Positions 1,054 through 38,996 of a stretch of 64,000 nucleotides of DNA are shown here, piece after piece. The notes under the pieces are model-generated. The model did not search any database. It saw only the letters and a program-made list of their open reading frames with translations, and was not told where the DNA came from. The position numbers were made by a program, and so were the translations under genes. Origin of the DNA: Escherichia coli (lineage in GTDB: Bacteria > Pseudomonadota > Gammaproteobacteria > Enterobacterales > Enterobacteriaceae). The stretch's first letter is position 1. Each line of letters starts with the position of its first letter. The stretch lies in NCBI RefSeq assembly GCF_041886205.1, contig NZ_CP169030.1. One strand, written 5' to 3'.

Positions 1054-1953
1054 TCAGGCGCTTAATGCTTTATCCTTGTCAAAAGGAACACCGGCATACG
1101 CAAGCTCACTCAGCAGTTTGCGTTTCCATCCACCATGCTCATCAAGCTCGGTATAGAGAACCCCGGCAAGATCTGAAGGGATTTCGATATCTCCCTTCCT
1201 GAGTACAAGTACTTTCCCGCGTCCAAGCTTCCCGGCGAAATATCCGAGCTCATACAGGACATTCTGGCGTGCGCGGAGACGTGTGCTTTCAGATGCCAGA
1301 GCACTGCCGCTATCGTCGGGCGTCATCAGCACGATGGCAAAACTGACATCCCCTGACTCTGCTTCAAATTTCTCGATAATCGTCCTGGAGCCGTCAGGAC
1401 GTTCTGAAAGAATGATTTCCTCAAGACCTATCCGGGATATAAAACGGGCAACAGACTGAAGGGCATCATTATCATGGCCATGAACAATAAAAATTTTTCG
1501 GGAAACCGGCCGAAACACTGCAGGCTCAGGATCGTGTTGGTTTTCCACATACAACTGGTAATCGCGCACGAACGGGGCAACTAATGACGACGTGAATTTT
1601 CGAATGGATTCAATAATGTTTCGATCATAGAAAAATGTATGACAGAAATTAAAGGAAAAATTGTTATCGTCTGCCATTTTCTCGATCAGCAGCAACTTCA
1701 GGCCCAAAATATCAGCGGGCTCATCAGGCCACTGTAGAACAGCGGAACCAGCCATGCTGGATTCAGTATCTTCACTCCTGGCCAGAAAGGTATCAAGTTC
1801 AACATTGCGGGTCAGATGTGCATTAACTGACTGCAGATTCTCTGAGTTCAAGAGCCGGGCCAATTGCTTAAGAGGTTGCTGATAGTTCTGAACGTCAGCG
1901 CGCTGAAGGTCGAATACGCAATTTTTAAGTGACTGAAAGATATCAATTGCCAT
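1054..1953 (-). CDS. TIR-like domain protein (COG4271/PF10137-type C-terminal domain) with uncharacterised N-terminal domain; candidate anti-phage effector
   Basis: C-terminal half contains KIFIVHGHD ... AIVLMTPDD ... RARQNVLYELGYFAGKLGRGKVLVL, matching the hallmark motif pattern of bacterial TIR-like nucleotide-binding domains seen in CBASS/Pycsar/Thoeris-type effectors; ~45 percent GC. Confidence 0.5.
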   Translation of the reverse strand: MAIDIFQSLKNCVFDLQRADVQNYQQPLKQLARLLNSENLQSVNAHLTRNVELDTFLARSEDTESSMAGSAVLQWPDEPADILGLKLLLIEKMADDNNFSFNFCHTFFYDRNIIESIRKFTSSLVAPFVRDYQLYVENQHDPEPAVFRPVSRKIFIVHGHDNDALQSVARFISRIGLEEIILSERPDGSRTIIEKFEAESGDVSFAIVLMTPDDSGSALASESTRLRARQNVLYELGYFAGKLGRGKVLVLRKGDIEIPSDLAGVLYTELDEHGGWKRKLLSELAYAGVPFDKDKALSA

Positions 1954-3333: not shown

Positions 3334-5472
3334 TCAAGCGATACGGGCAACCGAGCTCTGGTTTGCTGCCGGTGGCAGGGCGATGAGCTTGTCACATTCC
3401 ATAATCACGTACTCCGGGATGAGATCGAATCTGGACGGATCTAGTTGACAGATGAACTCATTTTCAATGTGGTACGTTTCGTTAACGAATTTTCGTATTA
3501 CCGGATGGTCCTGATCCAGTTCCAGTAAACGGAATACCTGCAGTTTTTCATAGCCGTTACGACAGCGACGGTACAGGTTTTTTATTTCATCTGGGCTGCT
3601 GACGAGAGCCTGAAGTCGCGGGTAATCAAAACTGTCCACATACTCCCGGATATCCCGCAAGGCCTGCTGAATTTTCTCAGGAGCCATTTTGGGATAGCCC
3701 GAGCCCGCAGCGGCAGGCTCGCGATAATCCAGCGGGACGACGCGTCGATGGAATAGATTGGATAGAAGCTGATAAGCATCACCACGTTCGTCAACGATTT
3801 CAAAGTAGCGACGAAGATAGATGAGCTTAATGATCTCCTCACAGTCTGCTGACGCGGTGATGGATTTGCAGATCTGCATGAATGTCATGATATCGCCGTC
3901 GTTAACAGGTAATTCTTCTATGACTCCAGCAGACAGGCGCAGGCAGGAGGCGGTCACCTGATTACTGAACAACCTTCTGACTGACTTCAGCGTGTCAATC
4001 ACAGGCTCCACGTCATGCGTCAGCATAAGTACAGTCCGGTTCTTCAGGCATTCACCACTTGCACGTCTGAACAGCATTTCAAGAATGGCAAACTTCTTGT
4101 TTTTATCAAAAGAAGATATGGGATCATCAAGGATAATCAGTCCCGGGTTTTTTGACAGGCATTCATACATGAATAACACAATCGCAAAGGCGTTCCGTTC
4201 TCCATAGCTGAGATGCTGGCTACCGCCGCTGACGTACCCGTCAAAATCTATGTGTCGTAGCCTGAGTTTTCTCTGCTCTCCCTCGCCGGCTATATCCACC
4301 CTGTATTTATAGCCTGCATAAGTGAGGAAATTATTGATGTTTGTTTTGTGCTGTGCGATCAGCCGGATCATGCTGTCCCGGTGCCGGTTAATTTTTCCCT
4401 GCAGCGGTCCGGCAAGGTTTATCAGGTCCATAAGGGCCGCGTTCAGTCTGTCGGTGATCCCCTGCATGAGTTCGGATTGCAGATCAGGGAAGAACTGCAG
4501 GTCAATCAACCTGGCAGTGAGCACCTCCCGAACGTTCTGCTGTTCCTGCAGGCTGAAAACATTCAGGCCTCTCAGCGCAGTGAGTTTCTCTGTCAGCGTA
4601 TCGGTCTGGCGTTTCAACGCCACTAGGTACTCGATATGTTCGGCTTCCGGACCGTTCTGAAGCATAGTAATGGCCAGAAGGCGTTCTCTGGCGCTCTCCG
4701 TCAGGTAATTACCGAGGTTTTCCACCAGTCTGATGATAGCGGTCAGGTTTTTAATGGTGGATTTATCGTATTCCTCTCTGACTTGGCGAATTTGTGCTTC
4801 CTTTCCCGTGATATCACCGGTACAGAACGGACAGCAGCCATCCGAAAGGGGCGAAAACTCGAGTCCCTTTGTCTGCCAGTCAATCCATTCCACGCGGCGT
4901 TCACTGCGGATGTAGGGTTGATAGTTCTCAAGACCAGCCGGAATGTGGTGTATTTTATTTCCGCCTGACAGACCTCTCATGCCGGTTGAAGAACGTGAAA
5001 TCCCGGAACTGGTTGATCTGAAAGCATTACTGAGTTCCTGTAGATGGTCTATCAGAGAGTTCAGCTCAGTGTGATCCGTGAAAACAGCCCGGATCTTTTG
5101 CGTCATTTCTTCTATTTCACGCTCTCTTTCCGCATGGGCTTGATTGCGGATAAGAATATTAAAGCTATCACTGATGAGCTCGTCCGGTTGGAACGTAAAC
5201 TGACTGACGTACTCCTCGTTGAAGCACATCACGTCCCCAATCCCGTCAGCACCGATGACAATGGGCCCGGTGCTATCGGGGTTTTCTCCGCGCAGCCGGA
5301 AGGGTATCAGTGCCTGTAGTCCCTGAATGTCGTCCCGCGCCGCACAGCTTATGGCCCGTGACAGCGTACTTTTTCCAGTACCATTTGGCGCAAACTTAAT
5401 GTTCAGTTTATCGGCAGTGAGGGTGATATGTGCTCGTACGATGTTATTGCAGTGGCGTATTTCAATGTCCAT
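3334..5472 (-). CDS. ABC-type ATPase with coiled-coil CxxC zinc hook and C-terminal domain; RloC/PrrC-like anticodon-nuclease candidate
   Basis: Walker A (FAPNGTGKST) at N-terminus, long predicted coiled-coil insert containing CPFC, Walker B/D-loop (LIILDDPISSFD) and H-loop (LMLTHD), then ~220-aa C-terminal domain with LRRYFE and H-containing motifs; architecture matches RloC. Confidence 0.5.
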   Translation of the reverse strand: MDIEIRHCNNIVRAHITLTADKLNIKFAPNGTGKSTLSRAISCAARDDIQGLQALIPFRLRGENPDSTGPIVIGADGIGDVMCFNEEYVSQFTFQPDELISDSFNILIRNQAHAEREREIEEMTQKIRAVFTDHTELNSLIDHLQELSNAFRSTSSGISRSSTGMRGLSGGNKIHHIPAGLENYQPYIRSERRVEWIDWQTKGLEFSPLSDGCCPFCTGDITGKEAQIRQVREEYDKSTIKNLTAIIRLVENLGNYLTESARERLLAITMLQNGPEAEHIEYLVALKRQTDTLTEKLTALRGLNVFSLQEQQNVREVLTARLIDLQFFPDLQSELMQGITDRLNAALMDLINLAGPLQGKINRHRDSMIRLIAQHKTNINNFLTYAGYKYRVDIAGEGEQRKLRLRHIDFDGYVSGGSQHLSYGERNAFAIVLFMYECLSKNPGLIILDDPISSFDKNKKFAILEMLFRRASGECLKNRTVLMLTHDVEPVIDTLKSVRRLFSNQVTASCLRLSAGVIEELPVNDGDIMTFMQICKSITASADCEEIIKLIYLRRYFEIVDERGDAYQLLSNLFHRRVVPLDYREPAAAGSGYPKMAPEKIQQALRDIREYVDSFDYPRLQALVSSPDEIKNLYRRCRNGYEKLQVFRLLELDQDHPVIRKFVNETYHIENEFICQLDPSRFDLIPEYVIMECDKLIALPPAANQSSVARIA

Positions 5473-11650: not shown

Positions 11651-11766
11651 CAGTTGATTGGGCGTAATGGCTGTTGTGCAGCCAGCTCCTGACAGTTCAA
11701 TATCAGAAGTGATCTGCACCAATCTCGACTATGCTCAATACTCGTGTGCACCAAAGCGAGGTGAGC

Positions 11767-13446
11767 ATGGCGACGGACACCCCACGGATTCCAGAACAAG
11801 GCGTGGCCACTCTGCCTGATGAGGCTTGGGAGCGTGCGCGCCGTCGTGCGGAGATCATCAGTCCGTTGGCGCAGTCGGAGACGGTCGGGCACGAAGCGGC
11901 CGATATGGCGGCTCAGGCGCTGGGCTTGTCTCGGCGCCAGGTATACGTTCTGATCCGGCGTGCCCGGCAAGGCAGCGGCCTCGTGACGGATCTGGTGCCC
12001 GGCCAGTCCGGTGGAGGTAAAGGTAAGGGGCGCTTGCCGGAACCGGTCGAGCGCGTCATCCACGAGCTACTGCAAAAGCGGTTCCTGACCAAGCAGAAGC
12101 GCAGCCTAGCGGCCTTTCACCGCGAAGTCACTCAGGTGTGCAAGGCTCAAAAACTGCGAGTGCCGGCGCGCAATACCGTGGCCTTACGGATCGCTAGCCT
12201 TGACCCGCGCAAGGTCATCCGCCGGCGGGAAGGCCAGGATGCCGCTCGTGACCTACAAGGTGTGGGCGGCGAGCCTCCTGCCGTGACCGCGCCGCTGGAG
12301 CAGGTGCAGATAGACCATACGGTCATCGACCTGATCGTGGTCGATGACCGCGACCGGCAACCTATTGGCCGCCCGTACCTGACCCTCGCCATCGACGTGT
12401 TCACCCGCTGCGTGCTCGGCATGGTCGTCACGCTGGAAGCGCCGTCTGCCGTTTCGGTTGGCCTGTGCCTCGTGCATGTCGCCTGCGACAAGCGCCCTTG
12501 GCTGGAAGGACTGAACGTGGAAATGGATTGGCAGATGAGCGGCAAGCCCTTGCTGCTCTACCTAGACAACGCGGCCGAGTTCAAGAGCGAGGCCCTGCGC
12601 CGGGGTTGCGAGCAGCATGGCATCCGGCTGGACTATCGCCCGCTGGGACAGCCGCACTATGGCGGCATCGTGGAACGGATCATCGGCACGGCGATGCAGA
12701 TGATTCACGACGAACTGCCGGGAACGACCTTCTCCAACCCTGACCAGCGCGGCGACTACGATTCCGAAAACAAGGCCGCCCTGACGCTGCGCGAGCTAGA
12801 GCGCTGGCTCACATTGGCGGTCGGCACCTACCACGGTTCGGTGCACAACGGCCTGCTCCAACCGCCGGCCGCGCGCTGGGCCGAGGCCGTGGCGCGTGTC
12901 GGCGTACCGGCCGTCGTCACACGCGCTACTTCGTTCCTGGTCGATTTTCTGCCGATCCTCCGGCGCACGCTGACCCGCACCGGCTTTGTCATCGACCACA
13001 TCCACTACTACGCCGATGCGCTCAAGCCGTGGATTGCGCGGCGTGAACGCTGGCCGTCCTTTCTGATCCGGCGCGATCCGCGCGACATCAGCCGTATCTG
13101 GGTCCTGGAACCGGAGGGACAGCATTACCTGGAAATTCCCTACCGTACCTTGTCGCATCCGGCTGTCACCCTCTGGGAACAACGGCAGGCGCTGGCGAAA
13201 CTGCGGCAGCAAGGGCGCGAACAGGTGGATGAGTCGGCGCTGTTCCGCATGATCGGCCAGATGCGTGAGATTGTGACCAGCGCGCAGAAGGCCACACGCA
13301 AGGCGCGGCGTGACGCGGATCGCCGCCAGCACCTCAAGACATCAGCTCGGCCGGACAAGCCCGTTCCGCCGGATACGGATATTGCCGACCCGCAGGCAGA
13401 CAACTTGCCACCCGCCAAACCGTTCGACCAGATTGAGGAGTGGTAG
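11767..13446 (+). CDS. tniA: TniA transposase (Tn402/Tn5053 family, DDE)
   Basis: 559 aa starting MATDTPRIPEQG; ORF-track start at 11731 is an upstream in-frame Met. Confidence 0.9.
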   Translation: MATDTPRIPEQGVATLPDEAWERARRRAEIISPLAQSETVGHEAADMAAQALGLSRRQVYVLIRRARQGSGLVTDLVPGQSGGGKGKGRLPEPVERVIHELLQKRFLTKQKRSLAAFHREVTQVCKAQKLRVPARNTVALRIASLDPRKVIRRREGQDAARDLQGVGGEPPAVTAPLEQVQIDHTVIDLIVVDDRDRQPIGRPYLTLAIDVFTRCVLGMVVTLEAPSAVSVGLCLVHVACDKRPWLEGLNVEMDWQMSGKPLLLYLDNAAEFKSEALRRGCEQHGIRLDYRPLGQPHYGGIVERIIGTAMQMIHDELPGTTFSNPDQRGDYDSENKAALTLRELERWLTLAVGTYHGSVHNGLLQPPAARWAEAVARVGVPAVVTRATSFLVDFLPILRRTLTRTGFVIDHIHYYADALKPWIARRERWPSFLIRRDPRDISRIWVLEPEGQHYLEIPYRTLSHPAVTLWEQRQALAKLRQQGREQVDESALFRMIGQMREIVTSAQKATRKARRDADRRQHLKTSARPDKPVPPDTDIADPQADNLPPAKPFDQIEEW

Positions 13447-13448
13447 CC

Positions 13449-14357
13449 GTGGACGAATATCCCATCATCGACCTGTCCCACCTGCTGCCGGCGGCCCAGG
13501 GCTTGGCCCGTCTTCCGGCGGACGAGCGCATCCAGCGCCTTCGCGCCGACCGCTGGATCGGCTATCCGCGCGCAGTCGAGGCGCTGAACCGGCTGGAAGC
13601 CCTTTATGCGTGGCCAAACAAGCAACGCATGCCCAACCTGCTGCTGGTTGGCCCGACCAACAATGGCAAGTCGATGATCGTCGAGAAGTTCCGCCGCACC
13701 CACCCGGCCAGCTCCGACGCCGACCAGGAGCACATCCCGGTGTTGGTCGTGCAGATGCCGTCCGAGCCGTCCGTGATCCGCTTCTACGTCGCGCTGCTCG
13801 CCGCGATGGGCGCGCCGCTGCGCCCACGCCCACGGTTGCCGGAAATGGAGCAACTGGCTCTGGCACTGCTGCGCAAGGTCGGCGTGCGCATGCTGGTGAT
13901 CGACGAGCTGCACAACGTGCTGGCCGGCAACAGCGTCAACCGCCGGGAATTCCTCAACCTGCTGCGCTTCCTCGGCAACGAACTGCGCATCCCGTTGGTT
14001 GGGGTAGGCACGCGCGACGCCTACCTAGCCATCCGCTCCGATGACCAGTTGGAAAATCGCTTCGAGCCGATGATGCTGCCGGTATGGGAGGCCAACGACG
14101 ATTGCTGCTCACTGCTGGCCAGCTTCGCCGCTTCGCTCCCGCTGCGCCGGCCTTCCCCAATTGCCACGCTGGACATGGCTCGCTACCTGCTCACACGCAG
14201 CGAGGGCACCATAGGGGAACTGGCGCACTTGCTGATGGCGGCGGCCATCGTCGCCGTGGAGAGCGGCGAGGAAGCGATCAACCATCGCACACTCAGCATG
14301 GCCGTTTACACCGGACCCAGCGAGCGGCGGCGGCAATTCGAGCGGGAACTGATGTGA
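13449..14357 (+). CDS. tniB: TniB NTP-binding transposition protein
   Basis: Walker A VGPTNNGKS, probable GTG start at 13449 giving MDEYPIIDL. Confidence 0.85.
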   Translation: MDEYPIIDLSHLLPAAQGLARLPADERIQRLRADRWIGYPRAVEALNRLEALYAWPNKQRMPNLLLVGPTNNGKSMIVEKFRRTHPASSDADQEHIPVLVVQMPSEPSVIRFYVALLAAMGAPLRPRPRLPEMEQLALALLRKVGVRMLVIDELHNVLAGNSVNRREFLNLLRFLGNELRIPLVGVGTRDAYLAIRSDDQLENRFEPMMLPVWEANDDCCSLLASFAASLPLRRPSPIATLDMARYLLTRSEGTIGELAHLLMAAAIVAVESGEEAINHRTLSMAVYTGPSERRRQFERELM

Positions 14358-15571
14358 AGCCTGCGCCGCGCTGGCCGCTGCATCCCGCCCCGAAAGAAGG
14401 CGAGGCGCTGTCCTCATGGCTCAACCGCGTGGCCCTTTGCTATCACATGGAGGAGCCCGACCTGCTGGAGCACGATCTTGGTCACGGCCAGGTCGATGAC
14501 CTGGACACCGCGCCACCACTCTCGCTGCTGGCGTTGCTTTCCCAGCGGAGCGGCATCGAGCTGGACCGGCTGCGCTGTATGAGTTTCGCCGGATGGGTGC
14601 CTTGGCTACTGGACAGCCTTGATGACCAGATTCCAGACGCCTTGGAAACCTATGCGTTTCAGCTCTCGGTGTTGCTGCCAAGACTCCGCCGTAAGACGCG
14701 ATCCATCACGAGCTGGCGTGCCTGGCTGCCCAGCCAGCCGATAAACCGCGCCTGTCCGCTCTGCCTGAGCGATCCGGAGAACCAAGCCGTACTGCTCGCG
14801 TGGAAGCTGCCCCTGATGCTGAGCTGCCCGCTGCATGGCTGCTGGCTGGAATCCTATTGGGGCGTGCCAGGGCGGTTTCTCGGCTGGGAGAACGCCGACG
14901 CCGAACCGCGCACCGCCAGCGACGCGATTGCGGCGATGGACCAGCGTACCTGGCAGGCACTGACAACCGGTCACGTGGAGCTGCCGCGCCGACGCATCCA
15001 CGCCGGATTGTGGTTTCGACTTCTTCGCACGCTGCTCGATGAGCTGAACACCCCGCTTTCCGCGTGCGGAACCTGCGCGGGGTATCCCCGCCAAGTCTGG
15101 GAAGGCTGCGGGCATCCGCTGCGTGCTGGGCAAAGTCTGTGGCGACCGTATGAAACCCTGAATCCGATAGTACGGTTACAGATGCTGGAGGCGGCGGCAA
15201 CGGCAATCAGCTTGATTGAGGTGAGGGACATCAGCCCGCCAGGCGAGCAGGCAAAGCTATTCTGGTCCGAGCCCCAAACCGGGTTCACCAGTGGCCTGCC
15301 GACGAAAGCGCCGAAGCCCGAGCCCATCAATCACTGGCAGCGTGCAGTCCAGGCCATCGACGAGGCCATCATTGAAGCGCGACACAACCCCGAGACGGCA
15401 CGCTCGCTGTTCGCGTTGGCTTCCTATGGTCGGCGCGATCCCGCTTCCTTGGAACGGTTGCGCGCCACCTTCGTGAAGGAAGGCATCCCGCCGGAATTTC
15501 TGTCACATTACCTGCCTGATGCACCCTTTGCATGTCTTAAACAAAATGACGGGTTAAGTGACAAATTTTGA
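14354..15571 (+). CDS. tniQ: TniQ transposition protein
   Basis: 405-aa frame starting at GTG overlapping tniB stop (VKPAPRWPLHPAPKEGEALSSWLNR); the ORF-track entry 14084-15571 is an upstream extension of this frame. Confidence 0.8.
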   Translation: MKPAPRWPLHPAPKEGEALSSWLNRVALCYHMEEPDLLEHDLGHGQVDDLDTAPPLSLLALLSQRSGIELDRLRCMSFAGWVPWLLDSLDDQIPDALETYAFQLSVLLPRLRRKTRSITSWRAWLPSQPINRACPLCLSDPENQAVLLAWKLPLMLSCPLHGCWLESYWGVPGRFLGWENADAEPRTASDAIAAMDQRTWQALTTGHVELPRRRIHAGLWFRLLRTLLDELNTPLSACGTCAGYPRQVWEGCGHPLRAGQSLWRPYETLNPIVRLQMLEAAATAISLIEVRDISPPGEQAKLFWSEPQTGFTSGLPTKAPKPEPINHWQRAVQAIDEAIIEARHNPETARSLFALASYGRRDPASLERLRATFVKEGIPPEFLSHYLPDAPFACLKQNDGLSDKF

Positions 15572-17031: not shown

Positions 17032-18045
17032 ATGAAAACCGCCACTGCGCCGTTACCACCGCTGCGTTCGGTCAAGGTTCTGGACCAGTTGCGTGAGCGC
17101 ATACGCTACTTGCATTACAGTTTACGAACCGAACAGGCTTATGTCCACTGGGTTCGTGCCTTCATCCGTTTCCACGGTGTGCGTCACCCGGCAACCTTGG
17201 GCAGCAGCGAAGTCGAGGCATTTCTGTCCTGGCTGGCGAACGAGCGCAAGGTTTCGGTCTCCACGCATCGTCAGGCATTGGCGGCCTTGCTGTTCTTCTA
17301 CGGCAAGGTGCTGTGCACGGATCTGCCCTGGCTTCAGGAGATCGGAAGACCTCGGCCGTCGCGGCGCTTGCCGGTGGTGCTGACCCCGGATGAAGTGGTT
17401 CGCATCCTCGGTTTTCTGGAAGGCGAGCATCGTTTGTTCGCCCAGCTTCTGTATGGAACGGGCATGCGGATCAGTGAGGGTTTGCAACTGCGGGTCAAGG
17501 ATCTGGATTTCGATCACGGCACGATCATCGTGCGGGAGGGCAAGGGCTCCAAGGATCGGGCCTTGATGTTACCCGAGAGCTTGGCACCCAGCCTGCGCGA
17601 GCAGCTGTCGCGTGCACGGGCATGGTGGCTGAAGGACCAGGCCGAGGGCCGCAGCGGCGTTGCGCTTCCCGACGCCCTTGAGCGGAAGTATCCGCGCGCC
17701 GGGCATTCCTGGCCGTGGTTCTGGGTTTTTGCGCAGCACACGCATTCGACCGATCCACGGAGCGGTGTCGTGCGTCGCCATCACATGTATGACCAGACCT
17801 TTCAGCGCGCCTTCAAACGTGCCGTAGAACAAGCAGGCATCACGAAGCCCGCCACACCGCACACCCTCCGCCACTCGTTCGCGACGGCCTTGCTCCGCAG
17901 CGGTTACGACATTCGAACCGTGCAGGATCTGCTCGGCCATTCCGACGTCTCTACGACGATGATTTACACGCATGTGCTGAAAGTTGGCGGTGCCGGAGTG
18001 CGCTCACCGCTTGATGCGCTGCCGCCCCTCACTAGTGAGAGGTAG
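17032..18045 (+). CDS. intI1: Class 1 integron integrase IntI1 (copy 1)
   Basis: 337-aa tyrosine recombinase [49 protein letters not shown]... Confidence 0.95.
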
Positions 18046-18968: not shown

Positions 18969-20888
18969 CTAAGTTATTTTATTGAACATATATCGTACTT
19001 TATCTATCCGACTATTTGGACGACGGGGCTGGCAAACAGGTTCACCGGTAGTAACATGGTACCCTTTTAACTCTGTTAAACAAACACTACGTCCATTTGT
19101 AAAGAAAGTTAAATCACTACGATATTCTTGAATACACCGAGCAGGGATTTCTCCACTAAGAATGACCTCATTATTTTTCAATTGAGTGTCTACGATGTTC
19201 GCACAATATTTAGGAGCATCGTTGTATGCTCGTGAAAGATATTCCTGTGGCGCATAAATTTTAAAACTAAGATATGGCTCTAACAATTCTGTTCCAGCTT
19301 TTTTTAAGACTTGTTCCAATACAATAGGAGCAAGCATCCGAAAATCTGCTGGGGTACTAACAGGGCTATAGTATAAGCCATACTTAAAACAGATTTTACA
19401 GTCCGTCACATTCCAACCATACAATCCTTGTTCACAGCCATAGCGTATCCCTTCCATAACTGCATTTTGAAATGATTGATTTAAGTATCCAAGAGAAACC
19501 GAGCTCTCATACTGCATTCCACTTCCCAACGGAAGCGGTGATACAGATAAACCAATGGAAGCCCAGAAAGGATTTGGCGGCACTTCGATGTGAATGGTAT
19601 ATTCTGCATTTTTTAACGGTCTCTCCATATAAATGACTGTAGGCTCTTTTAGTTCTATCTCCACATGATACTTTTCTTGCAACAGTGCACTAATCACTTC
19701 CATTTGTACTTTCCCTAAGAAAGAAAGTATAATTTCATGTGTCGTAGAATCCACGTAATATCGTAGAAGCGGATCACTATCTGAGATTTCCAAAAGGGCA
19801 TCAAGCAACATTTCTCTCTGTTCAGGTTTACTCGGTTCAACAGTTGTTTGTAGTAGAGGGTGCGGATTTTCAATCTTTTTTCTCTGTGGCAATAGTTTTG
19901 TATCTCCAAGAACACTATTTAACTTCAAAAACTCATTTTGCAAAATAACAATTTCCCCGGAATAAGCCTTATCGATTTTACATAATTCACCATTTATTGA
20001 AGTATACATTTCTGTAATTTTTATTTTTTCCTTTTCCGATATTCTAACCGAATCTCGCAAATGCAGTACGCCACTATAAAGACGTATATATGCAAGACGT
20101 TGTCTTTTTTTTGTATATTCAATTTTGAAAACATTTCCGCAAAGTTCAGACTGACCTCGATGTGTTGATGAATAAAATTTATTCGTAATCACTTCTATAA
20201 GGTTATCAATCCCTATATTGTTTTTTGCACTTCCATGATAAAGAGGGAACAGAGAACAATTCTGAAATCTTATGCTTTCCTCTTGTTCGAGTTCCAATGC
20301 TTCTAATGATTTACCGGACATATATTTCTCTAAAAGGTCATCGTTTCCCTCTATTACCGTATCCCATTGTTCAGATTCGGTAAAGTTCGTCACACACATA
20401 TTAGGATACAGTTCTACCTTCTGTTTGATTACAATTTCGGCAGAAAGTTTCTCTTTAATATCCTGATAAACCGTTGATAAATCAATTCCATTTTGGTCAA
20501 TCTTATTGATAAAAAAGATTGTGGGAATCCCCATTTTCCTAAGTGCATGAAATAATATACGAGTTTGTGCTTGTACGCCATCTTTTGCAGAAATCAGTAG
20601 AATTGCCCCATCTAAAACTGATAATGAACGATATACTTCTGCTAAGAAATCCATATGTCCTGGCGTGTCTATGATGTTCACCTTCGTATTTTCCCACTGA
20701 AAAGAGGTTATTCCTGTCTGAATTGTAATTCCTCTCTGACGTTCTAAAAGCGTATTATCCGTCCTCGTTGTACCTTTGTCCACGCTTCCTAATTCTGTAA
20801 TCGCTCCACTGTTATATAATAAGCTTTCTGTTAAGGTAGTTTTTCCCGCATCAACATGAGCTAAAACTCCAATATTAATAATTTTCAT
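18969..20888 (-). CDS. tet(M): Tetracycline resistance ribosomal protection protein Tet(M)
   Basis: 639 aa starting [30 protein letters not shown] (translational GTPase motifs); the ORF-track frame begins 5 codons upstream. Confidence 0.95.
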
Positions 20889-20903
20889 GTGATTTTCCTC
20901 CAT

Positions 20904-21247: not shown

Positions 21248-22261
21248 ATGAAAACCGCCACTGCGCCGTTACCACCGCTGCGTTCGGTCAAGGTTCTGGA
21301 CCAGTTGCGTGAGCGCATACGCTACTTGCATTACAGCTTACGAACCGAACAGGCTTATGTCCACTGGGTTCGTGCCTTCATCCGTTTCCACGGTGTGCGT
21401 CACCCGGCAACCTTGGGCAGCAGCGAAGTCGAGGCATTTCTGTCCTGGCTGGCGAACGAGCGCAAGGTTTCGGTCTCCACGCATCGTCAGGCATTGGCGG
21501 CCTTGCTGTTCTTCTACGGCAAGGTGCTGTGCACGGATCTGCCCTGGCTTCAGGAGATCGGAAGACCTCGGCCGTCGCGGCGCTTGCCGGTGGTGCTGAC
21601 CCCGGATGAAGTGGTTCGCATCCTCGGTTTTCTGGAAGGCGAGCATCGTTTGTTCGCCCAGCTTCTGTATGGAACGGGCATGCGGATCAGTGAGGGTTTG
21701 CAACTGCGGGTCAAGGATCTGGATTTCGATCACGGCACGATCATCGTGCGGGAGGGCAAGGGCTCCAAGGATCGGGCCTTGATGTTACCCGAGAGCTTGG
21801 CACCCAGCCTGCGCGAGCAGCTGTCGCGTGCACGGGCATGGTGGCTGAAGGACCAGGCCGAGGGCCGCAGCGGCGTTGCGCTTCCCGACGCCCTTGAGCG
21901 GAAGTATCCGCGCGCCGGGCATTCCTGGCCGTGGTTCTGGGTTTTTGCGCAGCACACGCATTCGACCGATCCACGGAGCGGTGTCGTGCGTCGCCATCAC
22001 ATGTATGACCAGACCTTTCAGCGCGCCTTCAAACGTGCCGTAGAACAAGCAGGCATCACGAAGCCCGCCACACCGCACACCCTCCGCCACTCGTTCGCGA
22101 CGGCCTTGCTCCGCAGCGGTTACGACATTCGAACCGTGCAGGATCTGCTCGGCCATTCCGACGTCTCTACGACGATGATTTACACGCATGTGCTGAAAGT
22201 TGGCGGTGCCGGAGTGCGCTCACCGCTTGATGCGCTGCCGCCCCTCACTAGTGAGAGGTAG
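21248..22261 (+). CDS. intI1: Class 1 integron integrase IntI1 (copy 2, identical protein)
   Basis: Identical 337-aa translation to copy 1; one silent nucleotide difference noted. Confidence 0.95.
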
Positions 22262-32254: not shown

Positions 32255-32262
32255 CCTTATGA
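32255..32262. repeat. 8-bp target-site duplication (CCTTATGA), left copy, of the IS66-family insertion
   Basis: Same octamer at 34963-34970. Confidence 0.6.
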
Positions 32263-32293
32263 AGTAAGCGACTCGTCAGAACCGTATTGATAT

Positions 32294-33865
32294 TTACTGA
32301 GAGCTCAGATCAACTTTCCAGGGCAACAGATCGCGTACCCGGTTTGCCGGCCAGTCCTGGATATGTTCAATGACGTAACGCAGCCACTTTTCTGGCTCCA
32401 CATTGTTCAGACGGCATGTGCCGATCAGCGAGTACAACACCGCCGCATGTTCACCACCGCTGTCGGAACCCGCGAACATCCAGTTTTTCCGGCCTACGGC
32501 CACTCCCCGTAAGGCGTTCTCTGCGATGTTGTTGTCGATTTCCACCCAGCCATTACTGCAGTACACGTTCAGTGCATCCCACTGTTTCAGCAGGTATGCG
32601 AACGCTTTTGCCGTATCTGAGTGACGCGACAGTGTTTTCATCTGTTGCTGTATCCAGTCATACAGTGACTGCATCAGTGGCGCGGCTCTGGCTTTTCTTG
32701 CCGCCAGACGCTGTTCTGCTGAACAGCCCCGGACCTCTGCCTCGATGGCATACAGTTCACCGATACGCTGCAGGGCTTCCGTGGTGATGTAGGTGGACGC
32801 TCTTGCATGCACATCGTGGATTTTTCTCCGGGCATGAGCCATACACGCGGCTTCCGTTATTCTGCCGGATTCGTATAACGCCCGGTAACCACCGTAAGCA
32901 TCGGCCTGAAGCACACCGCTGTAACCGGCCAGGTGATTTTGTGGATGGATACCTTTCCGGTCCGGACTGTACGCGAACCAGACCGCCGGGGGCATCTGTG
33001 AACCGGCGTTACGGTCATCACGGACGTAGACCCACAGCCGGGCTGTCCGGGTTTTACCGCTGCCCGGCTCCTGGACCGGGACGGGGATATCATCAGCATG
33101 GACTTTACCGGGCATCAGCACATACTGGCGCAGGACGTCATACAGCGGCTCCAGCAGTTCAGCAACAGCACCTGTCCAGCGCCCCAGTGTGGCACGGCTC
33201 AGCTCCACTCCCTGACGACGGTATATTTCTGACTGGCGGTATAACGGCAGATGGTCTGCATATTTCCCGGTGACAACATGGGCCAGAAGCCCCGCTCCGG
33301 CATAACTGCGTGCAATGGGTTTTGAAGGTACTGGTGCCTGCACGATATGGTCGCACCGGCAACAGGCCTGTTTCGGACGTTGTGTTTCGATAACCTTAAA
33401 GGCGCTGCTGATAAGCTCCAGTTGCTCTGACACATCACATCCCAGAGAACTGAGTTCACCACCACAGGCAGGACAGCATTCCTCTTCCGGCCGGATAACC
33501 CGGGTTTCACGGGGAAGTGAGGCCGGTAACGGTTTACGGGCTGAAGACTGGCGCAGGGCGGATGGCAGTACCGGGTCATATTGCTCACCCAGCGTTTCCG
33601 CCATTTCTTCCTGAAGTGCGCTGATTCGCTCCTGTGCTTCCTGTATCTGCCGTTCGGTTTTTGCACGAAGTTTTTCTGAGCTTTTACCGAACTGCATACG
33701 TTGCAGTTTCGCAACCAGCGCCTTCAGCCGGTTGATTTCGGAAGCATAAGCCGCCACCCGCTGTGAGAGCAGGCGGTTGTATTCAGCCATCTGGCGGATG
33801 GTGTCCTGTTGCGTCTGCAACAGTGCCCGCAGGCGGGCGTTCTCATGAGCAAGTGAGGTGTCCAT
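32294..33865 (-). CDS. tnpC: IS66-family transposase TnpC
   Basis: 523 aa with N-terminal leucine zipper, CxxC zinc-finger (CPACGGEL ... CRCDH) and DDE region. Confidence 0.85.
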
Positions 33866-33884
33866 ATCCTCACTTTACAACGGG

Positions 33885-34232
33885 TTATATGCGGATTCCA
33901 GCGCGTTCCGTTCGTTTCGGGTGCTTCCAGTTGATACCTTCAAGAAGCATGGATAACTGAGCCGGAGTAAGGTGCACCTTGCCGTCACGGGTGACTGGCC
34001 AGACGAAGCGGCCCCGCTCCAGGCGTTTGGTGAAGAGGCACAGTCCGTCACTGTCAGCCCACAACACTTTTATCTGGTCACCCCGGCGTCCGCGGAAGAT
34101 GAACAGGTGTCCGGAGAACGGGTCATCCTTCAGGACGTTCTGAACTTTTGATGCCAGGCCGTTAAAGCCATTTCGCATATCGGTGATACCTGCAACCAGC
34201 CAGATACGCGAACCTGCAGGGAGAGATATCAT
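33885..34232 (-). CDS. tnpB: IS66-family accessory protein TnpB (Orf2)
   Basis: 115 aa typical IS66 Orf2. Confidence 0.8.
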   Translation of the reverse strand: MISLPAGSRIWLVAGITDMRNGFNGLASKVQNVLKDDPFSGHLFIFRGRRGDQIKVLWADSDGLCLFTKRLERGRFVWPVTRDGKVHLTPAQLSMLLEGINWKHPKRTERAGIRI

Positions 34233-34879
34233 CAGTGGCTGCTCCCTTTTATTTCGCGGATAAGTGTCTGTAATAACGCCGGCGTCAGTTTACCTTTAAG
34301 CCTGAGAGTTCCGGCCGGCAGAACCAGCTCACAACACAGACTGTCGGACGGTGTATTTATCTGCTCTGGTTCCTGTGCGGGGGCCGGGATTTTATTATCC
34401 GGCTCCGGCGTTAACGTCACGGGAAGCAGTGCCGGCATATTTTTTCCGGAAGGCAGCAGGCCACCTTTCCGGTATTGATGGCGCCAGTTGAAGAGCAGGT
34501 TATCGTTGATTCCGTTTTCCCGGGCGATCTGCGCCACACAGGCTCCGGGCTGCAGTGACTGCTCCACTAAGGCGATTTTAAACTCATAAGGGAAGTTGGG
34601 CCGCCGGGGACGTTTTTTTACCACGGGGGCTTCGGATATAACGGTGCTTTCAGGACGTACGACTGGTACCGTGGAAAATTGTCCGTAAAGGCAGGCATCA
34701 AGTTCCTGCTCCGACATGCCTGCGGGCAAAGGCCACGAAAGGCCAGCTCTCCGAAAGCGCACGAACATACTACAAACTGTTGATTTTGGTACACCCAGGC
34801 GACGCCCGGCCACAACCCGGGGTAAATGTTCTTCAAAGTGAAGACGTAAAGCTTCAGTGATCCAGGTCCGGTGTTTCAT
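34232..34879 (-). CDS. tnpA: IS66-family accessory protein TnpA (Orf1, HTH)
   Basis: Frame 34232-34909; probable start at MKHRTWITEALRLHFE. Confidence 0.7.
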   Translation of the reverse strand: MKHRTWITEALRLHFEEHLPRVVAGRRLGVPKSTVCSMFVRFRRAGLSWPLPAGMSEQELDACLYGQFSTVPVVRPESTVISEAPVVKKRPRRPNFPYEFKIALVEQSLQPGACVAQIARENGINDNLLFNWRHQYRKGGLLPSGKNMPALLPVTLTPEPDNKIPAPAQEPEQINTPSDSLCCELVLPAGTLRLKGKLTPALLQTLIREIKGSSH

Positions 34880-34962
34880 ACGATAGTGTCCATTAAAAAT
34901 GATGGACATTATTTTTGTAGAGCCGGAGGAAACAGACCAGACGGTTTAAATGAGCCGGTTAC

Positions 34963-34970
34963 CCTTATGA
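34963..34970. repeat. 8-bp target-site duplication (CCTTATGA), right copy
   Basis: Matches 32255-32262. Confidence 0.6.
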
Positions 34971-34990: not shown

Positions 34991-34999
34991 TGTGGATAA
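34991..34999. promoter_or_regulatory. DnaA box (TTATCCACA on minus strand) of the IncFII-type origin region downstream of repA1
   Basis: Consensus 9-mer about 175 bp downstream of the repA1 stop. Confidence 0.5.
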
Positions 35000-35174: not shown

Positions 35175-36032
35175 TCAGGGGGAATCTGTGGCCAGCCGGC
35201 TGTAATTACGGTTACGTGACAGAATCATGCGCTCTTTCACACGACGCTCCACTTCGCGTTTTACCGCCTCACGATTGGCAGTGAAGCGCCCTTCCGAGAT
35301 TTCACGCGTCAGCTGCCGTTTCACCAGGGTGACGATATCCTGACGTTCCCTGTTCGCATCACGACGCGCACGGGCACGTTTTATTCCACGGGACTTAAGC
35401 TCTGTCTGGTAACTGCGGAAACGCTCACGCACAAAACGCCAGGCTTTCGCTATCAGTTCATCCATACCCAGGGTATCCAGTCCCTGCTTTTTGCGCTGTC
35501 TGTTTTCCCATTCAACACGACTGCGGCGCGCAGCAACCACTGCATCCTCAGACACATCAAGGGCGGCAAATAGCGCCGGTGTGAACGTGATATCGGTCGG
35601 AATGTAGCACCCGATAAGCGGATCATATTCCGTCTGGTAGGTAATCAGTCCCAGCTCTGCAAGGAACGTCAAGGCTCGGGTGGCCCGGGTGATGGAGAGT
35701 TTTCCGGCAGCAGACTCCGTCGCCAGTCCGCACTCAATGGCCAGCGTAGTGATGGAGCACTGGACGCGGTTGGCCAGCGGGTCATAGTGAAAACACAGCC
35801 CCTGCAGCAGCGCATCAATAGCCCGGCGACGCAGTACCGGTGGCATGCGCCGACGCAGTCCCTTCGAACGAGCATGTGCCACATGAATGGCGAAATCAAA
35901 ACGGGAGGTGAAGCCCACCGCCTTTTCCATCAGTTTTTCGCAGAACTTCAGCGTTCCGGCACCTTCACGGGGTGTGAACACCGGATTCGGGTTTTTAACC
36001 TGTGAATAGTATTTTTGAAGGAGATCAGCCAT
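35175..36032 (-). CDS. repA1: IncFII replication initiator RepA1
   Basis: 285-aa protein [41 protein letters not shown]...; ORF-track frame extends 13 codons upstream. Confidence 0.9.
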
Positions 36033-36108
36033 GTCCCCCTCCAACACTATTCCCCCTCCTACGGGCGGCAACTAGCTCGTCTGGGCCGACACGTAAAGTT
36101 TCGAACAT
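36025..36108 (-). CDS. Probable tap/repA6 leader peptide translationally coupled to repA1
   Basis: Short frame [27 protein letters not shown] terminating just inside the repA1 start, as for IncFII leader peptides. Confidence 0.35.
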
Positions 36109-36807
36109 ATCTGGTCTGAACCAGATGGTTCCTCCATCAAAAGCGATGAGATGAAGATCATTATCAAGAGTTTTGAGGGCTCTCCAAACACGAGTGTATG
36201 AACCTCCACTACAAACTGAAAGCTCTTTAACAGATAAGTTAACTTTGTTCGTATCAGGGATGTAGTGTGCGCACATTACTTGTACGAGGGAAACATAAAA
36301 ACTAACCATCGACGCGCTGATTTTATTTTTACGTTTGCCATGCGCTATTACAAGCAAACCTCTGATGAAGATCAGATGCTTGAAGGAGTCAAAATGAGCC
36401 CTTTTCTGGAGAAGGCTGCAAAACAGGTGAGGATACTTGCTGGAATCAATGTGAAGATCTGATTCAATCCCACCCGCTATTACTGAATGTGTTTCATGAT
36501 TAGCCACACCATCCTGCACTTACAATGCACAGAAGGAGTGAGCACAGAAAGAAGTCTTGAACTTTTCCGGGCATATAACTATACTCCCCGCATAGCTGAA
36601 TTGTTGGCTATACGGTTTAAGTGGATCCCGGTAATCTTCTCCTCGTCGCCAAACTAGATGAAGATTATCGGGGTTTTTGCTTTTCTGGCTCCTGTAAATC
36701 CACATCAGAACCAGTTCCCTGCCACCTTATGGCGTGGCCAGCCACAAAATTCCTTAAACGATCAGCAATCTATCACTCACGCCTGAGATAAGCAAGAATG
36801 TGAATAT

Positions 36808-37065
36808 TTACAAAGTCGCTCTGCGTTTCAGCTCTGATTCAATCAGTTTTTCAAGCATCTGCGCCTGGGTAATACCTTCCTCATCTGCCAGTTCACTCAG
36901 CCTGTCTTTTAACCGGGCCTGGATAACCGCATGAAAAGCCTTATGAGTGTTGCTTCTGCGAGCTAGAGAAGCCCTTTGCCTCTCTCTGGCCGGAACAGGG
37001 TTACCTTTCCGGTATGCACGCTTGTTACCTGATGAGGAAGTCACTGCATTTTCTGTCTGCGACAT
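36808..37065 (-). CDS. repA2: CopB/RepA2 transcriptional repressor of repA1
   Basis: 85 aa starting [11 protein letters not shown] with EGITQAQ motif, typical CopB. Confidence 0.75.
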
Positions 37066-37348
37066 CTCGCCCCCTCAATATTTAAACAGGGATCGTTTCG
37101 CAGAGGATACTACAGTTTTTTGAAATCAGCGACTTGAGAATTGTGACAATGATCTGTGTTGGCGCACAAATCATGTCTGATTACGACCGTTTAATGTGAT
37201 TTTGATAATGAAATGACTGAAAAGCAGGATATGCCTGAACCTGGGTGCCGGCCCCGGGCGGGACCGGCTGTTTCTGGCATGTCGGGTGTCTGCCCCTGAA
37301 ATACCTCACACTTCCGGAAAGCGGGGACTTCCGTCCCCGCCCGGCAGC

Positions 37349-37555
37349 TTACTTCCGTGCTTCGTAGGCCAGAGTTACCTGCACCACTGTATTTCCCCTG
37401 TGAATATTCAGCTCACATAACCGTTCCCTGAATATCAGTGAAAAACACAACACCGTAGCGCACACGGCGAGCAACCCGATAAGGGCATATTTCGTCATAA
37501 ACTTTGACCTCTCTGCAAGGAAGAGGCTACAATCAGTAGTGTTAAGGTACTTCAT
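37349..37555 (-). CDS. srnB: SrnB (Hok-family) post-segregational killing toxin
   Basis: MKYLNTTDCSLFLAERSKFMTKYALIGLLAVCATVLCFSLIFRERLCELNIHRGNTVVQVTLAYEARK. Confidence 0.8.
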   Translation of the reverse strand: MKYLNTTDCSLFLAERSKFMTKYALIGLLAVCATVLCFSLIFRERLCELNIHRGNTVVQVTLAYEARK

Positions 37556-37892
37556 GCAGACCTCACGAGTTAATGGATTAACAAGTGGGGTCTTCGCATT
37601 TCTGGTACCTGCGTCTTGCCTGAACCAGAAAGGCTCAGACACCCGCCGCGATAATACCACATTCCCTGTTGCTTAATAACTGCCACCACTGGCGCGATCA
37701 GATATTGGTTGTCTGGAGATTCAGGGTCCAACCTAACTTGAGCCAGCTATAGCGCGAAACCGTAAATTATTGTTCGTATGCTCCCGCTGGTCCAGAATGG
37801 GAATTCCCTCTGTCTGATGTTGAGCAGTCATGGAGAATTGAAACTTGTTTAAGACTTTGGCAGCCTACTGTTTTTAATACACCCAATAAGGT

Positions 37893-38210: not shown

Positions 38211-38996
38211 GCATGAGTTGTTCCCCAAAAGGATTTTGGGGGTGTTAAAAATAGTTTACATTTCCAGTTAAGATTCAGTGCGAAACACTTTTCCCGCAAG
38301 TATCTGTGTGCCACAAATTATATTAATCAGAGTCTTATGGGGTTCAACTTATTCAAACCGTAAGTTTCTGCACAGACTTTCCTGCTGGCCCAGTACACGA
38401 ACAACCTGCCCATAAATATCTGCAGACAATACCGGCTATGAAAAGATAAATAATACCAGTGGAATATATTCCCTCATGTTATTCTCCATATCAAATAAAT
38501 GGCACCTGTATTTCAGGCATCCTGAATATTGCAGCACACATTGAATAACACCTTATTTTGTGAAATAAATCACAAAATATAAAATCACGACTTAATACGA
38601 AAAAAAACTCTGTGCTACTCAGAATTGTCCGGTCATACTACCCGACCGGAGATTAAAAAAGTAAATCTCATGCATTATTCAGCCTTCTGACTCCTGGAGT
38701 AATGAAGGCTGCTTTTTTCGTTACACCTTTCCCCGGCAGCCCGTCGCCATGCTTCTGCCGCTTCCATCCAGCGTCCACTGATCTCCAGAATAACGGCCCG
38801 GCTTCCGGCACGCTGCCAGCGCCAGACCTGACCGTTCCGTGAACTGTTTCTGAATCCATTCATTTTTCTGCCCCTCCCTTTTAGTCGTCAGTATTATTGT
38901 GGTAAATAATTCAGTGGACTGGCTTCCTTTCGGGTACGGAAGTTATTTCCTTTTAAGCCTTATTTCCCTGCCTCCTCTCTCTGATGGAGGCTTTTT

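Follow-up and report, generated by a model that had tools for sequence, protein, structure and literature searches.

A putative truncated RepA paralogue between tap and repA1 in an IncFII-family replicon of Escherichia coli

Why are copB and repA1 separated by exactly 775 nt (36033–36807) in the Escherichia coli contig NZ_CP169030.1, when 304 nt lie between the copB stop and the repA start in R100? The question arises from a stretch of 64,000 nt of this contig (assembly GCF_041886205.1; referred to as the window, its coordinates being used throughout), in which the genes of an IncFII-family replicon are all located on the minus strand. An original prediction made from the DNA letters had noted that the gap of about 775 bp exceeds the much shorter one of classical IncFII replicons, which the comparison with R100 confirmed, and had proposed a variant control region or a small insertion within it. 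The answer that we favor, with a probability of about 0.7, is that the interval comprises an ordinary IncFII control module plus one extra cistron, termed ORF160 (open reading frame of 160 codons), which would code for a truncated RepA paralogue and form the middle part of a relay from tap via ORF160 to repA1. Among the carriers of resistance and virulence genes in E. coli and Klebsiella, IncF plasmids rank first, and copy-number control of the R1/R100 type is a textbook system.

The copB–repA1 interval and ORF160

Blastn alignment with R100 yielded two blocks on the window (37202→36498 and 36031→34960), and since their R100 counterparts share 9 nt, the window corresponds to R100 plus one clean indel of 466–475 nt. 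Homology to R100 runs through copA and tap to GGATGGTGTG(G/A)CT, breaks at the R100 repA1 start codon, and picks up again at a second start codon, that of the window repA1, within (A/G)TG(G/A)CTGATCT. The extra DNA, with a GC content of about 40–44%, is the body of ORF160, which occupies the slot where repA1 begins in R100. The low-GC segment of the original prediction was recovered at about 36100–36550, where 100-nt windows have a GC content of 0.37–0.44, as compared to 0.50–0.64 in repA1. The RepA1 proteins of the window and of R100 share 95% identity (92% at the DNA level).

The control elements argue against a variant or expanded control region, because the sizes and positions of CopA, CopT and tap are normal and the extra DNA is a cistron that codes for a protein. 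A search for a CopA-like RNA, suggested along with the original prediction, returned a full-length Rfam match (Table 1), immediately downstream of the sole sigma-70-like site (36557–36585, plus strand) found in 35900–37250. Its complement on the minus strand is CopT, the target in the repA mRNA leader. CopB/RepA2, the transcriptional repressor of the repA promoter in IncFII plasmids, is encoded upstream; together with the CopA-like RNA and the IncFII RepA initiator, it identifies the locus as a member of the IncFII family. The tap DNA is nearly identical to that of R100, and a predicted hairpin pairs tap codons with the downstream Shine-Dalgarno (SD) sequence and GTG codon, as at the R100 tap/repA1 junction. 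However, the tap stop codon overlaps the start of ORF160 and not that of the 285-aa repA1, as expected of an IncFII tap–repA1 pair; repA1 instead overlaps the stop codon of ORF160. The coupling geometry of IncFII is kept, with one step added. Rfam searches of the window did not detect a regulatory pseudoknot (PK-repZ scored 19.9 bits, below the gathering threshold of 44).

In relatives of ORF160, the homologous start codon is a GTG or TTG matching the R100 repA1 start, represented in the window by the GTG at 36507. Use of another GTG, at 36519, would extend the protein to 164 aa, and corresponds to the 164-codon frame (36025–36519, minus strand) which the original prediction had correctly placed on the repA1 strand. 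The TGA stop codon follows the repA1 ATG by 2 nt (ATGGCTGA). An open frame of at least 160 codons occurred in 0.24% of 5000 first-order Markov simulations of a 495-nt stretch of the same composition. The claim that the frame ends in a tap-like peptide did not hold: tap DNA aligned with the last 90 nt of the ORF no better than with shuffled sequences (p = 0.24), and homology of the ORF160 C-terminus to tap was rejected. The likeness is one of geometry only, the end of ORF160 making the same overlap with repA1 as tap makes in R100.

Comparison of ORF160 with the neighboring RepA1 gave a BLASTP E-value of 3e-9, and profile–profile alignment with hhalign a probability of 98.3% (E 2.3e-14), residues 23–153 being colinear with RepA1 residues 24–172. 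The closest full-length RepA proteins in plasmid records are about 29–34% identical to ORF160, which argues against a recent fragment of a known initiator. The fold model of ORF160 contains a predicted winged helix-turn-helix core; that of RepA1 has its elements in the same order and continues with long helices at the C-terminus (residues 190–274), which ORF160 lacks. A recognition-helix motif is common to both proteins and invariant across lineages. No solved structure for RepA1 was found by sequence or profile. Judging from these alignments, ORF160, annotated in RefSeq as hypothetical protein WP_001443034.1, is best described as a C-terminally truncated, very diverged RepA paralogue, that is, a remote homologue rather than a family member in the curated sense.

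Table 1. Features of the replicon and its immediate surroundings (window coordinates)
Feature	Position	Strand	Characteristics
copB/repA2	36808–37065	−	85 aa; Pfam RepB-RCR_reg (PF10723), E 3.4e-31; NCBIfam PRK13702, 134 bits (cut-off 87)
CopA antisense RNA	36592–36682	+	Rfam RF00042, 99.4 bits (gathering threshold 60), full length (1–92)
tap leader peptide	36500–36574	−	24 aa; Pfam RepA1_leader, E 1e-12; NCBIfam tap_IncFII_lead, 59 bits
ORF160, middle cistron	36025–36507	−	160 aa; GTG start at 36507, 8 nt inside tap; TGA (36025–36027) overlaps repA1 start
Predicted winged helix-turn-helix core of ORF160	36103–36327	−	Residues ~61–135; fold model
Predicted hairpin over repA1 start	36004–36052	−	Encloses SD sequence GGAGGGGGA (36034–36042), ATG (36030–36032) and ORF160 stop
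repA1	35175–36032	−	285 aa; full-length IncFII initiator; NCBIfam incFII_RepA TIGR03474, 582 bits (cut-off 447)
DnaA box of oriR	34991–34999	−	TTATCCACA; 178 nt downstream of repA1 stop, same offset as in R100
IS66-family element	32263–34962	−	2.7 kb; ORFs of 225, 115 and 523 aa; 28 bp beyond DnaA box

Conservation, occurrence and parallel layouts

Protein searches recovered 24 ORF160 clusters, whose full-length members comprise 151–199 aa and are 66–96% identical; homologues from several enterobacterial genera, at 65–88% amino-acid identity, keep the frame. The clusters originate from E. coli, Salmonella salamae, Citrobacter, Lelliottia and Klebsiella, and a PLSDB match (locus L003) adds Enterobacter. 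The order copB-(tap)-ORF-repA was observed in seven further loci from plasmids, draft genomes and metagenomes (named hosts: Enterobacter, Salmonella and Citrobacter); an eighth locus, L012, ends inside the ORF160 homologue. Wherever repA is complete in the seven loci, it codes for 285 aa, and all seven preserve both the tap-stop/ORF-start and the ORF-stop/repA-start overlap. CopA was detected in most of the ORF160 loci. In loci L007 and L011, an in-frame insertion of 120 nt (40 codons) follows codon 2 of the ORF160 homologue (L007, 3001–3600; L011, 529–1125), and a 1-nt indel near the end of the ORF turns ATGACTGA into an ATGA overlap. The inserted 40 aa (…SQAKWDGVPSDEQIR…) resemble the N-terminus of 339-aa Rep proteins in loci L014, L015 and L017; from its sequence, the insert looks like a recombination scar linking two replicon types.

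The ratio of nonsynonymous to synonymous divergence (dN/dS, or omega; Nei-Gojobori method) of ORF160 was 0.25–0.50 in six lineages and 0.23–0.72 in nine, with a median of 0.43; the winged-helix core had a value of 0.31 and the 60 N-terminal codons one of 0.56. With Fisher p values of 6e-7 to 9e-3 for independent pairs, and proportions of variable sites of 0.36, 0.27 and 0.53 at the three codon positions, these substitution patterns indicate that ORF160 is under purifying selection. It is also the best-conserved DNA of the replicon, mean pairwise identity being 0.77–0.90, versus 0.60–0.78 in repA1 and 0.51–0.68 in most of copB. In every lineage, the GC content of ORF160 (43–45%; 39–42% at third codon positions, GC3) is lower than that of repA (54–57%; GC3 58–69%). 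The identity patterns of ORF160 and RepA1 disagree; loci L005 and L006, for example, share 89% in RepA1 and 72% in ORF160, and the gene trees are incongruent, indicating that the modules have recombined. The divergent 65-codon frame of the original prediction is present at 36265–36462 (plus strand), but was rejected as a gene since it has in-frame stops in L005 and L006 and matches no family. Hence, of the proposal that alignment might reveal a spacing standard for the replicon subgroup and extra frames that are not conserved, the part on spacing stood, as 775 nt is standard for RepFIC / IncFIC(FII), and so did the part on the 65-codon frame, whereas the 164-codon frame proved to be conserved.

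The window replicon is identified by its close identity to plasmid F as RepFIC, the replicon of F and P307, of which tap–ORF160–repA1 is the normal architecture. Plasmid F (NC_002483; locus L018) is 99.87% identical over 2267 nt, from window position 38500 to 36234, where Tn1000 (gamma-delta) begins; the transposon is therefore located inside ORF160, at about codon 91, and not in the 285-aa repA1 (L018 3850–4190, corresponding to window 36574–36234). In the 4 kb following Tn1000 in F, repA1 is not annotated. RepFIC and RepFIIA are said to share homologous regions separated by non-homologous ones, and Tn1000 reportedly interrupts the F copy. The ORF160 sequence has been in the databases since F and P307 were sequenced. 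In the searchable literature we found no paper that treats the ORF as a truncated RepA paralogue, conserved and coupled in translation, or that describes it for further replicon lineages; “an ORF” to which a genome paper briefly refers in the repFIIA-repFIC region may be ORF160 (PMC2626276).

At least 483 PLSDB records contain the whole 951-nt region, and 507 encode ORF160 at ≥80% coverage. Among complete E. coli genomes, 525 of 5426 carry the ORF160 segment, nearly always at ≥99% identity. MOB-suite types plasmids with the identical region as IncFIC. The label rep_cluster_2244 accompanies IncFIC in five of the five typed E. coli ORF160 plasmids (L001, L002 and L020–L022) and is absent from CP063715; the label may recognize either ORF160 or this allele. 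CP063715, the closest plasmid overall, is devoid of ORF160; it was considered as an isogenic deletion and dismissed, because its replicon is only 86–94% identical and hence a different allele.

A profile search against 1.8 billion representative proteins revealed distant short relatives of ORF160 with 176–241 aa, all of which end about 10–20 residues past the conserved A-R motif at the end of the aligned region. In all contexts examined, there is an overlap between the short ORF and the start of a 337–339-aa Rep, which belongs to a different lineage and has only a weak Pfam match to IncFII_repA. In locus L017, where CopA was detected as well, and in the Klebsiella plasmid KY454639, copB and tap are followed by a short ORF (183 aa) and Rep (337–339 aa), each junction being an 8-nt overlap. 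The L017 short ORF has matches of 60–80% identity in at least 468 PLSDB records, those listed being mostly from Klebsiella and Salmonella; one of these records was inspected in detail. In the metagenomic loci L014 and L015, a short upstream ORF (about 17 codons in L014), read from the sequence, precedes the same layout. L015 contains a Rfam match to PK-repBA, a pseudoknot of the IncL/M type, at 3367–3490, directly upstream of the short ORF for a protein resembling the N-terminal half of RepA (RepA-N), which is followed by a 339-aa Rep; this locus thus appears to join the three-cistron layout to a non-CopA control module. The parallel short ORFs are 42–51% identical to the N-terminal half of classical RepA1. 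With an omega of 0.21, the Klebsiella-type short ORF is under purifying selection, its synonymous divergence (dS) being 0.68, versus 2.4 in the downstream Rep gene. Hairpins over the Rep start are predicted in the parallel layouts, too (z about −2.4).

A possible tap–ORF160–repA1 relay and competing explanations

In R1 and R100, CopA reportedly blocks translation of tap, and translation of tap is said to expose the repA start. Since the tap/ORF160 junction is, by homology, the same as the tap/repA1 junction of R100, the cistron directly controlled by CopA and tap here would be ORF160. Binding of CopA to CopT would block translation of tap. Ribosomes that complete tap would disrupt the tap/SD hairpin and initiate ORF160 at the GTG located within tap, as they do at repA1 in R1 and R100. 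They would then read 160 codons and stop at the TGA located 2 nt past the repA1 ATG, inside the hairpin that hides the SD sequence and ATG, so that RepA1 is made. Via this two-step relay, the output of RepA1 would stay under the control of CopA and CopB.

The hairpin predicted over the repA1 start has a minimum free energy of −29.7 kcal/mol and a z-score of −2.65, with one of 200 shuffled sequences equally stable. Its 3′ arm consists of repA1 codons 4–7 (CTCCTTCAA), the ORF160 stop codon lies in the loop, and the outer arms form the inverted repeat I2. The SD-like motif GGAGGGGGA occurs twice, 17 nt apart, within 36034–36062 (minus strand, CGTAGGAGGGGGAATAGTGTTGGAGGGGGACATG). Tandem rare AGG AGG codons are located at 36055–36060, at the opening of the repA1 frame upstream of its ATG (the frame is open from 36071). 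A programmed +1 frameshift at this pair, fusing ORF160 to repA1, was judged unlikely, because the tandem AGG pair is present only in the E. coli lineage.

Constraint at the protein level suggests that the ORF160 product matters. One speculative role would be a modulation of initiation, for instance by competing or partnering with RepA1 at oriR or at the promoter, which the recognition-helix motif common to both proteins makes plausible. Taking the parallel layouts into account, we tentatively raise the possibility that short RepA-N proteins are an unrecognized class of replication-control factor: a lone winged-helix domain, encoded by the middle cistron of a leader/RepA-N/initiator relay and kept or formed anew in at least two replicon lineages (RepFIC, and the group with 337–339-aa Rep proteins behind CopA- or IncL/M-type control), might act in trans on oriR or RepA and set the copy number or add a layer of incompatibility over CopA. 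The most likely origin of the layout itself is a recombination event by which a new repA–ori cassette came to lie behind the 5′ half of a repA already present.

Such a history might have left nothing but a scar. ORF160 would then be the leftover 5′ half of an older repA, abandoned when a new repA1–oriR cassette came in, with selection acting only on an open frame that lets ribosomes travel from tap to repA1 and with an inert polypeptide. In favor of this view, both the point of truncation and the in-frame indels agree with selection on the frame, constraint on the N-terminus is weak (omega 0.56), the GC content of ORF160 differs from that of its flanks, different lineages of short ORFs are found upstream of different Rep types, as repeated initiator swaps predict, and the 40-aa piece in L007 and L011 that resembles the N-terminus of a 339-aa Rep is a visible mark of recombination. 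However, selection for an open frame predicts an omega near 1, as opposed to 0.31 in the winged-helix core (p down to 6e-7); the recognition-helix motif common to RepA1 is invariant across lineages, and the Klebsiella-type short ORF is constrained as well (omega 0.21). We therefore regard an inert leftover as unlikely. Even less probable is an expression of repA1 independent of ORF160, from its own strong SD sequence (GGAGGGGGA) or an internal promoter, in which case the extra 470 nt would uncouple RepA1 from CopA and tap or lengthen the leader. The SD sequence is indeed much stronger than that of R100 and duplicated 17 nt upstream in this lineage, but it resides, together with the ATG, inside a predicted stable hairpin; no sigma-70-like promoter was found on the minus strand in 35900–37250, including the interior of ORF160; and the stop/start overlap, which independent initiation would not need, is kept in every lineage, even after the 1-nt indel. 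The small insertion envisaged in the original prediction, i.e. a mobile element or random DNA with open frames arising by chance, would agree with the clean indel relative to R100, its low GC content and the flanking 9-nt quasi-repeat TGGCTNATC. The quasi-repeat, however, is a pair of homologous start regions (GTGGCTAAT and ATGGCTGAT); terminal inverted repeats, as expected of an insertion sequence or a miniature inverted-repeat transposable element, are absent around the extra segment; and its content is a truncated repA paralogue with a frame that is intact across genera and expected by chance at a rate of 0.24%. The homology to RepA, the cross-genus conservation and the lack of inverted repeats effectively refute such an origin.

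Several observations weigh against the relay through a functional RepA paralogue. The obligatory coupling of tap, ORF160 and repA1 is deduced from geometry and a predicted hairpin, and the inner stem of this hairpin, while kept in eight of eight lineages, is nearly invariant and thus lends no covariation support. ORF160 does not reach the thresholds of curated families: Pfam gave no match at E ≤ 1, and TIGR03474 scored 17 bits versus a cut-off of 447, the match covering model positions 49–124 only. The first 26 residues are poorly conserved and modeled with low confidence. The dN/dS of repA1 (0.05–0.26) is below that of ORF160, and dS is lower in ORF160 (0.22–0.64) than in the adjacent repA1 (0.73–1.8). 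Given this low dS and the disagreeing gene trees, part of the conservation of ORF160 may reflect recent recombinational spread. Every ORF160-bearing plasmid with typing inspected also has FIA and/or FIB, and among these records none has the ORF160-type replicon as its only replicon. Since the RepFIC replicon is disrupted both in F, by Tn1000 in ORF160, and here, by the IS66-family element in oriR, its function in E. coli plasmids may often be dispensable.

Recombinational spread and a constraint on synonymous sites are both possible causes of the low dS. Conserved RNA structure as a cause was not supported: RNAalifold on eight lineages gave a positive (penalizing) covariation term for the body of ORF160, with compensatory changes in 5 of 137 pairs. 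Low dS and GC3 of the short ORF relative to the adjacent rep gene recur in the pairs from L003–L013, L017 and L019.

Comparison with known replicons and surroundings of the locus

With RepFIIA of R1 and R100 (NR1), the window replicon shares copB, CopA/CopT, tap and its hairpin, the start codon 8 nt inside tap, a RepA1 of 95% identity, and the offset of the DnaA box. It differs in that tap of R100 is coupled directly to repA1, whereas tap of the window is coupled to ORF160, which in turn overlaps repA1. The repA1 SD sequence of the window pairs with the downstream repA1 codons 4–7, whereas in R100 the anti-SD sequence is located upstream, in tap. IncFII-typed plasmids of Klebsiella and Salmonella with two consecutive “repA” genes (INF167_p0001, KY454639) resemble the window locus in copB, CopA, tap, a RepA-N ORF (183 aa), Rep, the 8-nt overlaps and the hairpin at the Rep start; their short ORF likewise is under purifying selection and has a dS below that of the Rep gene. 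However, identity of this short ORF amounts to 42–45% with the N-terminal half of classical RepA1 and to only 25–29% with ORF160, and the Rep belongs to the 337–339-aa lineage.

Replicons of the I-complex and of IncL/M, such as repY–repZ of ColIb-P9 and repB–repA of pMU604 and pMU720, combine leader-peptide coupling with a pseudoknot. The logic is the same, since translation of the initiator requires that of a short leader ORF, which is blocked by an antisense RNA, but these classical systems consist of two cistrons, leader and rep. Partial Rep polypeptides that influence initiation alongside the full initiator are familiar from the short forms of R6K pi and from TrfA-33/44 of RK2. Those are N-terminally shortened products of internal starts within the same gene, whereas ORF160 is a separate, diverged and C-terminally truncated gene.

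If RepA1 synthesis in replicons of the RepFIC and Klebsiella types indeed passes through an extra translated cistron, the textbook model would be incomplete for a sizeable fraction of F-type replicons, given that about 10% of complete E. coli genomes carry ORF160 and hundreds of Klebsiella plasmids an analogous ORF. A conserved lone RepA DNA-binding domain could then serve as a regulator of copy number or incompatibility, and perhaps as a target of plasmid-curing cassettes. The layout also suggests a way of swapping initiator–origin cassettes behind an existing antisense-RNA control module. As to annotation, WP_001443034.1 (“hypothetical protein”) and short calls named “plasmid replication initiator RepA” could become truncated RepA paralogues.

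Relative to R100 and to plasmid CP063715, which provide the empty site, oriR of the window replicon is split by the IS66-family element, whose 225-, 115- and 523-aa ORFs are probably the three genes of this family. An 8-bp target duplication (CCTTATGA) flanks the element at 32255–32262 and 34963–34970, and the rest of the R100-like origin continues beyond it. Judging from this interruption, the origin, and with it the replicon, may be inactive in this plasmid; a second replicon was not found in the scanned part of the window.

On its other side, copB adjoins a toxin–antisense module of the hok/sok type (37349–37660, minus strand, and 37488–37644; Rfam sok, 95 bits), at the position of which related plasmids annotate a Hok/Gef family protein. 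A match to Rfam AS-pc02, antisense to pHK01_099, is located at 38642–38754 (plus strand; 87 bits), between the finO-side genes and the replicon. More distant parts of the window contain TniQ- and Mu-transposase-like genes (11731–15571), followed by two 337-aa ORFs with identical Pfam matches to tyrosine recombinases (Phage_integrase; 17032–18045 and 21248–22261, plus strand) and, between these two, a 644-aa ORF for a GTPase of the EF-G/EF-Tu family (18969–20903, minus strand). A protein with a TIR effector domain of the CAP12/Pycsar type (1054–1953, minus strand) is encoded near a 712-aa AAA_13 ATPase (3334–5472, minus strand), and the two could be an anti-phage defence pair.

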